This document shows positions 1-32,705 of a DNA stretch of 64,000 nt, piece by piece; position 1 is the stretch's first letter, and the number at the start of each line of letters is the position of its first letter. Under the pieces are notes generated by a model. The model saw only the letters and a list, made by a program, of their open reading frames with translations. It was not told where the DNA came from and did not search any database. The translations under genes were made by a program, and so were the position numbers. The DNA comes from a candidate division FCPU426 bacterium (lineage in GTDB: Bacteria > Oederibacteriota > JAAXVQ01 > JAUVAV01). The stretch is taken from the NCBI GenBank assembly GCA_040756875.1, contig JBFLYH010000001.1, positions 1,244,878-1,308,877 on the forward strand, in the 5' to 3' direction.

Positions 1-221
1 GAGCAAGCGGCTGCCAAACCGCGGTAATAGCCCGGCCGGAACACCCCGTGCTTGAGGGGAACCACCTTCACGTCCACCGCAGGCGCGAGGGCCTCCGCCA
101 GGGCGCGCGAAAAATCAGCGATGCCGCAGGGTTCGTCCCAGGAAGTAAGCATGGCCACGCGCAGGGGCCGGGAGGTTGAAGCGGCGCCGGCGTCGCGGGA
201 TGACGAGTGCGGGAGAGGCAT
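1..221 (-). CDS. Glycosyltransferase family 4, N-terminal part (continues beyond window start)
   Basis: Manual translation from ATG 221: MPLPHS...RPLRVAMLTSWDEPCGIADFSRALAEAL, a typical GT4 N-terminus; open to base 1. Confidence 0.65.
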   Translation of the reverse strand, partial: MPLPHSSSRDAGAASTSRPLRVAMLTSWDEPCGIADFSRALAEALAPAVDVKVVPLKHGVFRPGYYRGLAAAC

Positions 222-29282: not shown

Positions 29283-29804
29283 CTAAGCGGCTTTGAGTTT
29301 CTTAGCCAGTCCTTGAGCCCAGTCCTTGATCGCCTTCCAATCCCGCGCGTCGCTGGCAGGCGTTTTATACAATGGGCTGACCGGCAGTTTGCCCAGCAGT
29401 GAATCCGGGAAACGCAGCGTAGCTGGATCGTACTTGCCGCCGAACATGACGGTTGATAGCGGCTTTAACCCAGGGAAAGCTTCCAGCGCCTTCTGCATCT
29501 GGGCTAATACACCCGGTTTGGCCAAGTCCTCACTTTTAACCGGCCCTAACGTGAAAATCGCCAAGGGTTTGGAGGCAAGGGCCGCGCCCTGCCGCTCCAG
29601 AAACCGCCCGGCGTCTTTTTGAAGCTTGCCGATGTACAATGGTGCGCCAAGAACCACCGCACTGAATCCATCGAGCTTCTTCACCTTCGCGGCAGACTCA
29701 ACCGAAACCTGCAAACCGTTTTCACGCAGCACGCTGGCCACGGATTCAGCGACCTCCCGGGTTGAACCATAACGAGTGGCATAGGTTACGAGTACATTCG
29801 CCAT
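29283..29804 (-). CDS. Flavodoxin-domain (HemG-like) protein
   Basis: VLVTYATRYGSTREVAE, AVVLGAPLYIG, DARDWKAIKDWA. Confidence 0.88.
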   Translation of the reverse strand: MANVLVTYATRYGSTREVAESVASVLRENGLQVSVESAAKVKKLDGFSAVVLGAPLYIGKLQKDAGRFLERQGAALASKPLAIFTLGPVKSEDLAKPGVLAQMQKALEAFPGLKPLSTVMFGGKYDPATLRFPDSLLGKLPVSPLYKTPASDARDWKAIKDWAQGLAKKLKAA

Positions 29805-29879
29805 AGCGGACACCTTCCTTTGTTTTGGATTATTGGAGATATTGTAGTGGCCTGCACCAATCCTCGGAATTCAGACATC

Positions 29880-30476
29880 TTATAAAAGAAGCGTCACGAC
29901 TATTATTGGAGCGATGAATATTGCAATAATATAAAGCCAACTTGAAGACAGGTAAAAGTGGATATTGTAATAAGTAGCTTCAATCCAATTAATATTTAAA
30001 TAATTCCTATACTGAGATTTAAACTTTTGCAAATCTACTTCTTCGTGGTTTTCAGGACATGCATTTAGTTCTTGTTGGTACCTCTTTTCAATATCCACTA
30101 ATTTTTCACTTAACTGTTCAGTATCAATATCACTATATAAATTTACTTCACTTAGTATTGTGTTTATTCTTTTAGCACAATTTTCCAATCTTTCCGCTCT
30201 AACAATGTATTTTTGAGAATTTTCGATTAGGCTAAAAACAAGGATGAATATTGAAAAAACAATAGTGAAAAAATCAGTTATATCTCTATTTAAAGTTGTT
30301 ATGAATCTCGGAAGTATAGATAGTGAAATACAATAGACAGACAAAAGCGCAATTCCAGCTACTGACCAATTACTCTTACTAATTAGCCTTCGGGATGCAT
30401 TAAACCTCGATCCCATAGTTTTCCAATATTTATCCCTATATTCACTTTTTTTCGCCGCTCTCGAATCACCAGTCAT
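29880..30476 (-). CDS. SLATT-domain membrane effector (SLATT_5-like)
   Basis: WKTMGSRFNASRRL, two TMs, RAERLENCA, Y...L..CPENHEEVD, C-terminal TM; AT-rich; RBS GAGGTG. Confidence 0.82.
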   Translation of the reverse strand: MTGDSRAAKKSEYRDKYWKTMGSRFNASRRLISKSNWSVAGIALLSVYCISLSILPRFITTLNRDITDFFTIVFSIFILVFSLIENSQKYIVRAERLENCAKRINTILSEVNLYSDIDTEQLSEKLVDIEKRYQQELNACPENHEEVDLQKFKSQYRNYLNINWIEATYYNIHFYLSSSWLYIIAIFIAPIIVVTLLL

Positions 30477-30494
30477 TTCGCACCTCTTTTAGAG

Positions 30495-30625
30495 AGGGTG
30501 GGCTACCTAATTTGACATTGCCATCTCTCTTGACAATTTCCAAGAGGTCAAGACCCTGCTCGGGTATTGATTACATCCCCCTCATTATTTTAATGAGGTC
30601 CTCAAATGAGGAGGTAGCCCACCCT
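30495..30625 (-). ncRNA. Putative RT-associated structured non-coding RNA (~131 nt)
   Basis: Perfect 14-bp inverted repeat AGGGTGGGCTACCT / AGGTAGCCCACCCT enclosing four hairpins, filling the RT-SLATT gap. Confidence 0.7.
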
Positions 30626-32027
30626 AGTAGATATTAGCATCATCTTTACTCAACTTCGAGAGTCTTCGCATTTTAACTAAATTAAATACATTTTCTACTT
30701 CTTGGTTCGAATACTTTCTATTATAGTTTAAATAACCAAACCTTTTCAGGTACAATAGCTTTTGACTTACAGTTAATATATTATTGTAATTCATAATATA
30801 TCCATTATTAGGTGAATATTTCGCTTCATAGAAAGATCTCGCCAGACTCTTTAATGTTTGAGGTGGCGTCCCCTCAAACTCATCCAATCTCCGAAAAAAG
30901 CTCCTTATCAGCTTGTCAATCCTGTATAAAAGTCCAACATCATTCATGCTCAGAAAATAGAATATCCACCCATATCTTTTTTTATCCGAAATGGCACCAG
31001 TTATTTTTTCATTAAGCTCTGTAATAAATACTTCATTAGGTGATTCAATAACGAATGAATAATCTTTAATTTTGTTTTTAAATCTGCTAAACATGGAGAC
31101 TATCGAATGCAAATAATTTTCAACAGTTTTTGGTCTCACTGTTATAACAGGCATTCTAAATAAGTACCCTAAATATTCAAATTGGTTTTCACTTTTGCAT
31201 ATCCGTGTCTTGCCAACCCCAGCTATATCAATTTCCAGTTTTAATTTCCGAAGCCCCTCCTCGACTTTGTTAATCAATTCATCCAGATATTCATTTTTTG
31301 TTATTACTAAAATATCATCTACATATCTAAAATAACAACATCTCGTATCATTTTGCATTTCGCGATCAAACTGTAGTAAATATATATTTGCTAGTATATT
31401 AGATATTGCTAAACCCTGTGGCACTCCTTTTGTAATTAATTTGTTTCTTTCCCTCTTATGATAACTCCTATTGACAATTGGCGTTTTCAAACCACCTTCA
31501 ATTAAGCTGAGTAGTTTTTTTGATCGAATTCTATCCTTCAATTTAGTAATTAGAATATCATTGTCTATATTAGGATAATATTCTTTAATGTCCGTCTGAT
31601 AAATCATTGTATTCCGAAGGTCAGTCGCATTCAAATAGCGAGCAATTCTATCAATATAAGTATTAGCTAACGACATTTGATTTGCTTCAGGGAATACTTC
31701 CGCCAATATCTCTTTTAGTTGATTAAGAACTATTCGATCTCGAAGAGTAGGTATAGCAACAACACGTGGTTTTTTATCCCTTCCTTTTAATTTTAAAAGT
31801 TCAAGATATGGGGCAAATTGATATTTTCCATCAACACACTTTCTTTTAATAACTGCGAATTCGTCTTGCAATCGTTTTTTGAATATTTCACCATTAATAT
31901 AATCAATACCTCTGTTCTTATCATGCCAATATTTGTGCTCAAATGCCGCTTTAAGCGTTTTTAATGAATACTTTTTTCTCAACAAGTCATTTAATCTCAT
32001 CGCGCCGAGGAATAAACAATATTTCAT
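30624..32027 (-). CDS. Reverse transcriptase, UG/DRT class-2-like (SLATT-associated)
   Basis: KPRVVAIPTLRDRIV, TDIKEYYPNID, GVPQGLAISNILANIYL, YFRYVDDIL, FEYLGY, KITG...YGWIFYF; no retron VTG motif, no intron maturase/HNH tail. Confidence 0.92.
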   Translation of the reverse strand: MKYCLFLGAMRLNDLLRKKYSLKTLKAAFEHKYWHDKNRGIDYINGEIFKKRLQDEFAVIKRKCVDGKYQFAPYLELLKLKGRDKKPRVVAIPTLRDRIVLNQLKEILAEVFPEANQMSLANTYIDRIARYLNATDLRNTMIYQTDIKEYYPNIDNDILITKLKDRIRSKKLLSLIEGGLKTPIVNRSYHKRERNKLITKGVPQGLAISNILANIYLLQFDREMQNDTRCCYFRYVDDILVITKNEYLDELINKVEEGLRKLKLEIDIAGVGKTRICKSENQFEYLGYLFRMPVITVRPKTVENYLHSIVSMFSRFKNKIKDYSFVIESPNEVFITELNEKITGAISDKKRYGWIFYFLSMNDVGLLYRIDKLIRSFFRRLDEFEGTPPQTLKSLARSFYEAKYSPNNGYIMNYNNILTVSQKLLYLKRFGYLNYNRKYSNQEVENVFNLVKMRRLSKLSKDDANIY

Positions 32028-32183
32028 ATTAAATACTATTTATTCTTTCGCCCCTCCTTTTTTTAATACTAAATTGAATTAGTTATCATGACAATGCATC
32101 TTTCTTATTTAGTCACAGCCATTGGAAATATAAATAGCTTGGTCAGGTTCTCCCTCACCCTCCTCTTTTCTACCCACATCAGT

Positions 32184-32705
32184 TTATCTAGCAGAGTTTG
32201 CCTTCATTTCCCTCAACCGTTCCTCAGCCAATTTAGCCAGGCGTATTCTGCTCTCCTTAGTAAATATGCTTTCCTTGGGCTTGGTCCAGGCTGCGATAAC
32301 ATGCTTTGCCCAGCGGATTGGAGAGGCAAACAAGCTTGGCCGCTGATCCTCGCCCTGGGCGGCCAGTTTTTCGAGCGCGGGTATGGCCTGCTTGGCTTCC
32401 GCGCCGAAGCGATCCAGCCATGCCAGCATTTCGGCTTTGAAATCTTTTATTTCCAGCGGGTTTTCAAACAGCACGATGATCGCCGCCAGGACTTCGTGCT
32501 GGTCCGGCTGAATCCGTTTGCCGATTCCAGCCAGGACATCAGCATAAAAGCCGTGTTCCAGGCCAATAGGGTCCCATAATTCGCGTTCCTCTGCTTGGGA
32601 GTGGGTCTGCTTGACAATTAGGTCCCAGGCTGTTTGGCGCGCGATTTTAGGATCAGAGGAGTAGAGTTTGGGGTATTGAGTTTTTATCGCTTCGAGATCA
32701 GGCAT
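32184..32705 (-). CDS. Hypothetical alpha-helical protein
   Basis: 173-aa ORF with RBS GAGG; possible HEAT-like segment AKQAIPALEKLA. Confidence 0.6.
   Translation of the reverse strand: MPDLEAIKTQYPKLYSSDPKIARQTAWDLIVKQTHSQAEERELWDPIGLEHGFYADVLAGIGKRIQPDQHEVLAAIIVLFENPLEIKDFKAEMLAWLDRFGAEAKQAIPALEKLAAQGEDQRPSLFASPIRWAKHVIAAWTKPKESIFTKESRIRLAKLAEERLREMKANSAR

Follow-up and report, generated by a model that had tools for sequence, protein, structure and literature searches.

Within the 64-kb window, by which we mean the whole stretch of 64,000 nucleotides analysed, a gene for a reverse transcriptase (RT) of the UG17 class and a gene for a SLATT_5 effector protein lie on the same strand, 147 nt apart, and the gap between them is nearly filled by a structured RNA element (Table 1). 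The RT_UG17 match in PADLOC spans positions 4–428 of the 429 in the profile, with a generic RT model as runner-up at 9e-42. The SLATT_5 match (2.1e-42, alongside 5.8e-40 for RTasSLATT in PADLOC) lies above the curated Pfam cut-off. The last base of the element is 18 nt from the SLATT start codon, and a Shine-Dalgarno-like AGAGGUG stands just downstream of the element, before SLATT. A whole-genome search found the element as a single copy in the 3.2-Mb genome. No Rfam family reached its gathering score: at a permissive threshold three matches fell within 29500–32500, all far below it, with E values of at least 1.5. A scan for promoter-like sites upstream of the element was uninformative (12 sites, against 10.3 expected by chance), and the same scan returned no terminator-like sites. 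The genome also holds a second RT gene (G000:C3:162121-163032, locus L082) with an open frame of 440 aa, whose match to the UG17 model is weak (2.5e-29) and which is therefore of another RT class.

Table 1. Genes and RNA parts at the locus, in window coordinates; RNA position n corresponds to window position 30626 - n.
Feature	Window position	Strand	RNA position	Sequence	Basis or remark
UG17-class RT (DRT10 RT), 467 aa	30624..32027	(-)			PADLOC RT_UG17 4e-130, Pfam RVT_1 3e-22
SLATT_5 two-transmembrane effector protein, 198 aa	29880..30476	(-)			Pfam SLATT_5 2e-42, PADLOC RTasSLATT 6e-40
ncRNA, very probably DRT10 (UG17-B type), 131 nt	30495..30625	(-)	1-131		ends as delimited by the closing stem
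SL1, 5′ strand	30612..30625	(-)	1-14	AGGGUGGGCUACCU	perfect 14-bp pairing with RNA 118-131
SL1, 3′ strand	30495..30508	(-)	118-131	AGGUAGCCCACCCU	RNAfold
SL2	30600..30611	(-)	15-26	CCUC-AUUU-GAGG	RNAfold; outside the covariance model
SL3	30580..30598	(-)	28-46	CCUCAUUA-AAA-UAAUGAGG	RNAfold, perfect 8-bp helix
Loop A	30566..30579	(-)	47-60	GGGAUGUAAUCAAU	contains the conserved AUGUAAUCAA motif
SL4, compact hairpin	30553..30565	(-)	61-73	ACCC-GAGCA-GGGU	RNAfold; consensus helices 3 and 4
SL5	30527..30546	(-)	80-99	CUCUUGG-AAAUUG-UCAAGAG	RNAfold; predicted 5′ template-boundary anchor
Loop B, putative template loop	30509..30526	(-)	100-117	AG, AUG GCA, AUG, UCAAAUU	

Folded with RNAfold, the element reaches -61.2 kcal/mol, compared with -35.9 ± 3.6 kcal/mol for 200 dinucleotide-preserving shuffles (z = -7.09), none of which (0/200) was as stable. 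The minus-strand sequence of 30495–30625 is as given in the first-pass annotation, which was made from the sequence alone, and RNAfold agrees with the perfect 14-bp closing stem around four internal hairpins that the annotation had described: the arms CCUC/GAGG, CCUCAUUA/UAAUGAGG, ACCC/GGGU and CUCUUG/CAAGAG are all present. In the minimum-free-energy fold SL4 is extended to RNA 56–78 by pairing of UCAA (RNA 56–59) with UUGA (RNA 75–78). At the position of SL2 a hairpin is present in relatives too.

The closest protein to the window RT, among 1212 proteins with E ≤ 1e-20, is 48% identical to it. A scan of one genome per species yielded 80 loci of relatives, and with the window SLATT as a tblastn query SLATT was placed downstream of the RT in 58 of them, across gaps of 123–350 nt. 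The SLATT match lies upstream of the RT in five of the other 22 loci, and no match was found within the fetched flank of the remaining 17, in part because contigs end there. The nearest relatives of the RT (35–48% identity) nearly all have RT followed by SLATT, and include Methylotenera mobilis, a published UG17-B example. When each RT-SLATT gap was folded alone, a closing stem enclosing at least three hairpins was obtained in 58 out of 58, which supports the earlier suggestion that this intergenic region holds a structured RNA under selection. Uninterrupted closing stems of at least 9 bp occur in 50 of 59 real regions (window included), compared with 20 of 295 dinucleotide shuffles, and their sequences differ widely between clades. 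The RNAs of the relatives are 106–185 nt long, a range that includes the 131 nt of the window element.

A MAFFT alignment of the window element with nine cyanobacterial ones shows a shared ACCUC before SL3, AUGUAAUCAA in loop A, where this motif is conserved in the cyanobacterial relatives, and UUGACCUC before SL5. From these ten seeds, of which the window element is one, we built a covariance model, R1. A search of the 80 loci and the window gave 38 matches at E ≤ 1, all just downstream of the RT, nine of them being reverse-strand echoes of the same places with far lower scores. The window element scores 88.7 bits, partly by construction since it belongs to the seed. The 19 best matches outside the window form alignment A5, which is fitted to the model and so favours structure; 94.5% of its cells are paired, against 40–47% with slid partners, and changes on both sides are seen in 25 of 30 consensus pairs, a count that none of 500 shuffles reached. 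The covariation for which the first-pass annotation had proposed to search homologous loci is thus present in these 19 relatives. Compensatory changes affect all 11 modelled pairs of the closing stem, four of the six pairs of consensus helix 2 (SL3; 96.5% paired) and five of the six of consensus helix 5 (SL5; 89.5% paired). Of the 30 consensus pairs, 27 form in the window RNA; nine of these differ on both sides from the commonest pair, and the three missing ones arise because the aligner slipped register in SL3. A sequence-only nhmmer profile of A5, made without the window, finds 30500–30621 (-) with E = 2.3e-10 as its sole match in the 64 kb.

One detail of the fold first drawn for the last domain, an outer UUGAC/GUCAA pairing, did not hold up: it is absent from the minimum-free-energy fold and shows no covariation. 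The partner of UUGA lies upstream, in helix 3, where 91% of cells are paired and three of four pairs show changes on both sides among the 19 relatives. Some G-U-tolerant 4-mer complement of the strand at the UUGA position can be found in loop B of 14 of the 19, but it vanishes where that strand reads ACGA or GGGA, hence the lack of covariation, and we reject UUGAC/GUCAA as a conserved fold. The helix would also bury the template loop. Of five close cyanobacterial relatives, four have a UCAA towards the end of loop B; since both loops end in AAUCAA-like words, we take this UCAA as a sign that the two loops are pseudo-symmetric and not as a switch.

We conclude that the 131-nt element is very probably the ncRNA of a complete DRT10 anti-phage system of UG17-B architecture, in the order RT-ncRNA-SLATT. 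The combination of a UG17 RT, SLATT and an ncRNA has been described as the DRT10 anti-phage system, in which protein-primed synthesis produces kilobase tandem-repeat DNA according to an A-B-A′ template rule, and in which a hairpin just upstream of the template acts as its boundary (Tang et al. 2025, PMC12632851). Three UG17 subtypes have been defined (Sanchez-Nieto et al. 2026, bioRxiv 10.64898/2026.04.29.721553). In UG17-B the RT precedes SLATT at a distance of about 200 bp and a covariance-supported ncRNA, with RNA-seq support in Methylotenera mobilis, lies upstream of SLATT (Sanchez-Nieto et al. 2026). The window has the corresponding features: a UG17 RT with an intact motif, an adjacent SLATT_5 gene in the RT-then-SLATT order, a covarying multi-hairpin ncRNA with a long stem, and a hydroxyl-bearing residue at the C-terminus of the RT. 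The kind is already published and this copy is a divergent new member, with an RT at most 48% identical to any protein found. Gene callers would see two proteins only and leave an essential RNA unmarked, and the element completes the annotation of a three-part system.

The base composition of the locus bears on its origin. That the element is richer in GC than its flanking genes had been pointed out in the first-pass annotation, and this is so (46% for the element, 30–33% for the RT and SLATT genes), the wider neighbourhood being richer still. The cassette from RT to SLATT (29880–32100) has 30–36% GC, against 45–65% in the DNA on either side. Its neighbours encode ordinary metabolic proteins (flavodoxin, FMN reductase, DUF1801, methyltransferase). 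A search of 40 related genomes at E ≤ 1e-30 did not find the RT, a result that, together with the low GC content, points to horizontal acquisition. No integrase or repeat boundary was seen around the 2.2-kb cassette. The locus looks like a bare defence cassette of 2.2 kb and low GC content, horizontally acquired into a high-GC genome, and as such it catches DRT10 moving as a bare unit.

A structural reference for the RNA is available from E. coli. The H120 locus has been placed in UG17-B (Sanchez-Nieto et al. 2026), and its RT-ncRNA complex, from a system with the order RT-ncRNA-SLATT, has been solved by cryo-EM: two RTs sit on one pseudo-symmetric RNA with SL1–SL5 and two loops, synthesis is primed by Tyr467, and copying begins at G134 (Chen et al. 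2026, bioRxiv 10.64898/2026.10.08.757509). A further locus, L083 of E. coli (NZ_CP147053, 463416-468533), has the order RT (469 aa), gap, SLATT. Its RT carries 16 of the 16 residues, and its intergenic RNA satisfies, at one unique offset, nine of the nine nucleotide identities named by Chen et al. (2026), and for these reasons we treat it as an H120-type system. The junction in this H120-like RNA reads A-C-[SL5]-A-G, then GAU UGGACU GAU AUCUC, then SL1, and G134 corresponds to the first base of the second GAU. The seed of R1 is cyanobacteria-like. With this model neither the Serratia ncRNA nor the H120-like one of E. coli was recovered where it would be expected, and the match to the Pseudomonas ncRNA was weak (E = 0.004); our mapping of the window RNA onto the cryo-EM numbering therefore rests on architecture and not on alignment. 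Published covariance models are described as working only within subtypes (Sanchez-Nieto et al. 2026). The L083 module adjoins a tyrosine integrase, tRNA-Sec and remnants of a primase and a polarity-suppression gene, and it occupies the slot in which a P4-like satellite at selC carries its cargo.

The window RT is 40% identical to the H120-like RT over nearly its full length (E = 1e-109). Its YVDD catalytic motif (D237/D238) aligns with D232/D233 of that protein, and its last residue, Tyr467, aligns with Tyr467. Among 22 aligned relatives Tyr is the last residue in 14 and Ser in five, and the other three have a Tyr one to four residues from the end. By analogy with H120, Tyr467 is the predicted priming residue. 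In the H120 RT, His313 stacks on the 5′ linker; the window RT has no equivalent residue. A PDB sequence search with the RT returned no DRT10 structure, the best match being Cas6-RT-Cas1 (1e-13).

The A-B-A′ pattern is present in loop B as AUG-GCA-AUG, 2 nt after SL5, and the predicted layout is a 2-nt 5′ linker, a template A-B at 30519–30524, a realignment site A′ at 30516–30518 and a 7-nt 3′ linker. Its mere presence is a weak test because 3-nt patterns are common: an unanchored search finds one in 28 of 28 real loops and in 87% of shuffled loops, and so does not discriminate. The starting point is more informative. Patterns whose A spans 3 nt or more begin at loop position 3 in 13 of the 28 distinct loops of relatives, compared with 5.8 ± 2.1 in shuffles; only five of 2000 shuffles reached 13, although the test overstates the case as the relatives are kin. 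Patterns starting at loop positions 1 or 2 were found in one loop each of the 28, and this scarcity, with the enrichment at position 3, fits a 2-nt linker. [quoted passage not shown] 2026, bioRxiv 10.64898/2026.06.29.735271). The H120-like RNA, as we read it, also has a 2-nt linker between SL5 and its template. Given a DRT10 ncRNA, and by analogy with these systems, we think it probable, with modest confidence, that the template is AUG-GCA-AUG and would be copied into (TGCCAT)n DNA.

The same ncRNA might be read in another register. Loop B holds a second 3-nt A-B-A′ of the same 6-nt period, CAA-UGU-CAA, so that CAAUGU (RNA 106–111) would be copied and realigned on CAA (RNA 112–114) to give (ACATTG)n, or both registers would compete and repeat addition would be imprecise. 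A′ would then lie 3 nt from SL1, nearer to the 4–5 nt of the two characterised systems, Eco3 and the H120-like RNA, than the 7 nt that AUG-GCA-AUG leaves. CAAU is, moreover, the A/A′ word of Eco3, and a cryptic second realignment site makes Eco1DRT10 imprecise (Tang et al. 2025). However, A would start 6 nt after SL5, against the rigid 2-nt boundary reported by Ramirez et al. (2026), and A-B-A′ patterns at loop position 7 are rarer in the relatives (9 of 28) than at positions 3–6. We consider this register unlikely, though worth keeping in mind.

With AUG-GCA-AUG as the template, the system may work as follows, by analogy with the published complexes. Two RT molecules would bind the pseudo-symmetric RNA, one on SL3 and loop A, the other on SL5 and loop B. 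The RT on loop B would start DNA synthesis from the hydroxyl of the C-terminal Tyr467 and copy the short template AUGGCA (RNA 102–107) up to a boundary formed by SL5 plus the 2-nt linker. The new 3′ end (...CAT) would then slip back onto the downstream AUG (RNA 108–110) and the cycle would repeat in the manner of telomerase, the expected product being a protein-linked single-stranded (TGCCAT)n. Build-up or perturbation of this repeat DNA during infection is thought to activate the SLATT effector, which would abort the infection. Loop A is the likely counterpart of loop 1, or Loop A, of the published complexes, and with its sequence (GAUGUAAUCAAU) it should give short abortive products only. 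It contains no A-B-A′ repeat of 3 nt or more, and it resembles (G-AUG-UAAUCAAU) loop B (G-AUG-GCA-AUG-UCAAAUU) minus the duplicated unit, which matches the published functional asymmetry of the two loops: in Eco3 initiation occurs at the first base of A′ and loop A yields abortive products only (Ramirez et al. 2026). According to the published rule, the spacing of two stem-loop anchors determines the template, and the window RNA, with its 131 nt and predicted 6-nt repeat, is a compact natural variant on which this rule could be tested.

Other accounts of the element dispense with an RT template of this kind. It could act in cis on the SLATT mRNA, as a leader or as a processing structure, and control SLATT translation or the stability of an RT-SLATT transcript. 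Its position just upstream of the Shine-Dalgarno-like AGAGGUG, 18 nt before the SLATT start, would suit such a role, as would the overlap of its 5′ strand with the RT stop codon and the short spacing between element and SLATT in most relatives, mostly 13–28 nt. At loci L008 and L012, however, SLATT is found upstream of the RT and yet the same element still comes after the RT, so that the element travels with the RT and not with the SLATT start. In addition, homologous RNAs bind the RT and template cDNA in the systems studied experimentally (Tang et al. 2025; Chen et al. 2026), and the scan found no terminator-like site. We regard a leader role without template function as very improbable. Another candidate is a retron-type msr/msd RNA, which would be copied once to yield branched multicopy single-stranded DNA: the element is a structured RNA closed by inverted repeats beside an RT, and some databases name the relatives 'retron-type reverse transcriptase'. 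Yet RT_UG17 (4e-130) is far ahead of the next PADLOC model, the generic RT one, the RNA lies downstream of the RT and not upstream as in a retron, and no Rfam family matches it; lacking a retron-clade RT and an upstream msr/msd, the locus gives this reading almost no credibility. A chance palindrome or a functionless dispersed repeat (REP or MITE-like), for which the long inverted repeat is the sole argument, is refuted by the single copy in the genome, by the shuffles, none of which folds as well, and by the conservation of the element in relatives of several phyla, where it occupies the same position and shows compensatory changes, and a terminator is rejected on the absence of terminator-like sites.

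For the DRT10 ncRNA there remains the matter of how it is made. SL1 begins on the second base of UAG, the RT stop codon (30626–30624), and the 5′ strand of the closing stem starts within or just before that codon at 16 of 59 loci, namely the window and 15 of 58 relatives. This overlap and the short spacing to SLATT prompt one to ask whether the RNA arises by processing of the RT transcript. In the compact systems the ncRNA could be the processed 3′ end of the RT messenger and not a separate gene, with the RT loading in cis, an idea that we put forward as speculative and on balance doubtful. A terminating ribosome would have to melt SL1, so that translation of the RT and folding of the ncRNA would be mutually exclusive on one transcript, and each new RT would load in cis onto an RNA a few nucleotides behind. 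If true, this would amount to built-in control of stoichiometry and assembly, which has not been described for DRT10. Three loci (L012:859-2993, L008:875-3009 and L028:149-2262) have a third order, SLATT_5, RT, then an ncRNA of the same type, and here too the closing stem starts at the RT stop codon UAG. Relative to RT-ncRNA-SLATT this order is circularly permuted, the RNA keeping its place behind the RT, and it is not mentioned in the available part of the subtype paper (Sanchez-Nieto et al. 2026). Directly after the DRT10 module of L012, which comes from a Thermodesulfobacteriota MAG, lies a gene (L012:3203-4333) for a protein with a restriction endonuclease domain of the Mrr type and a weak match to AAA, which suggests that the setting, unlike that of the window, is a defence island.

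Among known systems, the RNAs of retrons resemble the window element as structured RNAs that are closed by inverted repeats and serve an adjacent RT, but they differ in RT clade, in the position of the RNA relative to the RT and in their product, a single branched msDNA as opposed to tandem repeats. With the ncRNA of DRT9 (UG28) and with telomerase RNA the element would share a short internal template, a flanking boundary helix and iterative copying. The primer of telomerase, which lengthens chromosome ends, is DNA and not the hydroxyl of a protein. The ncRNA of DRT10 has been reported to resemble that of SenDRT9, and its mechanism to parallel telomerase (Tang et al. 2025); DRT9 is set apart by a conserved poly-U template and by having no obligatory SLATT effector (Tang et al. 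2025; Chen et al. 2026).

Eco3DRT10, a UG17-A system, is closer. It is likewise a tripartite arrangement of RT, ncRNA and SLATT, with a central stem carrying four hairpins (Tang et al. 2025; Ramirez et al. 2026). There too the last hairpin is followed by a template loop with a 2-nt 5′ linker and an A-B-A′ pattern, priming uses a C-terminal Ser or Tyr, and the ncRNA ends a few nucleotides before SLATT; its loop B has 19 nt, against 18 nt in the window (Ramirez et al. 2026). In UG17-A (Eco3, and E3659 of Sanchez-Nieto et al. 2026), however, the order is ncRNA-SLATT-RT with SLATT and RT overlapping, whereas the RNA of the window lies between RT and SLATT. Eco3 is described as priming from Ser456, whereas the window RT ends in Tyr467.

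The UG17-B systems compare most directly. The primary sequences of the window and H120-like RNAs are too distant for R1 to link them, the length from SL1 to SL1 is 131 nt in the window and about 146 nt in the H120-like RNA, and the predicted template of the window has 6 nt (AUGGCA), compared with the 9-nt GAUUGGACU as we read it in the H120-like RNA. SL1 of the window, moreover, begins within the RT stop codon, whereas in E. coli a spacer precedes the RNA. Against these differences stand the shared order RT-ncRNA-SLATT_5, the RT of Methylotenera mobilis (P0037, UG17-B), which is 44% identical to that of the window, and a common RNA plan of SL1, SL2, SL3, a loop, a compact SL4, SL5 and a template loop, in which the template is preceded by the same A-C-[SL5]-A-G junction and loop B is 18 nt long in the window and 19 nt (A123-C141) in the H120-like RNA.
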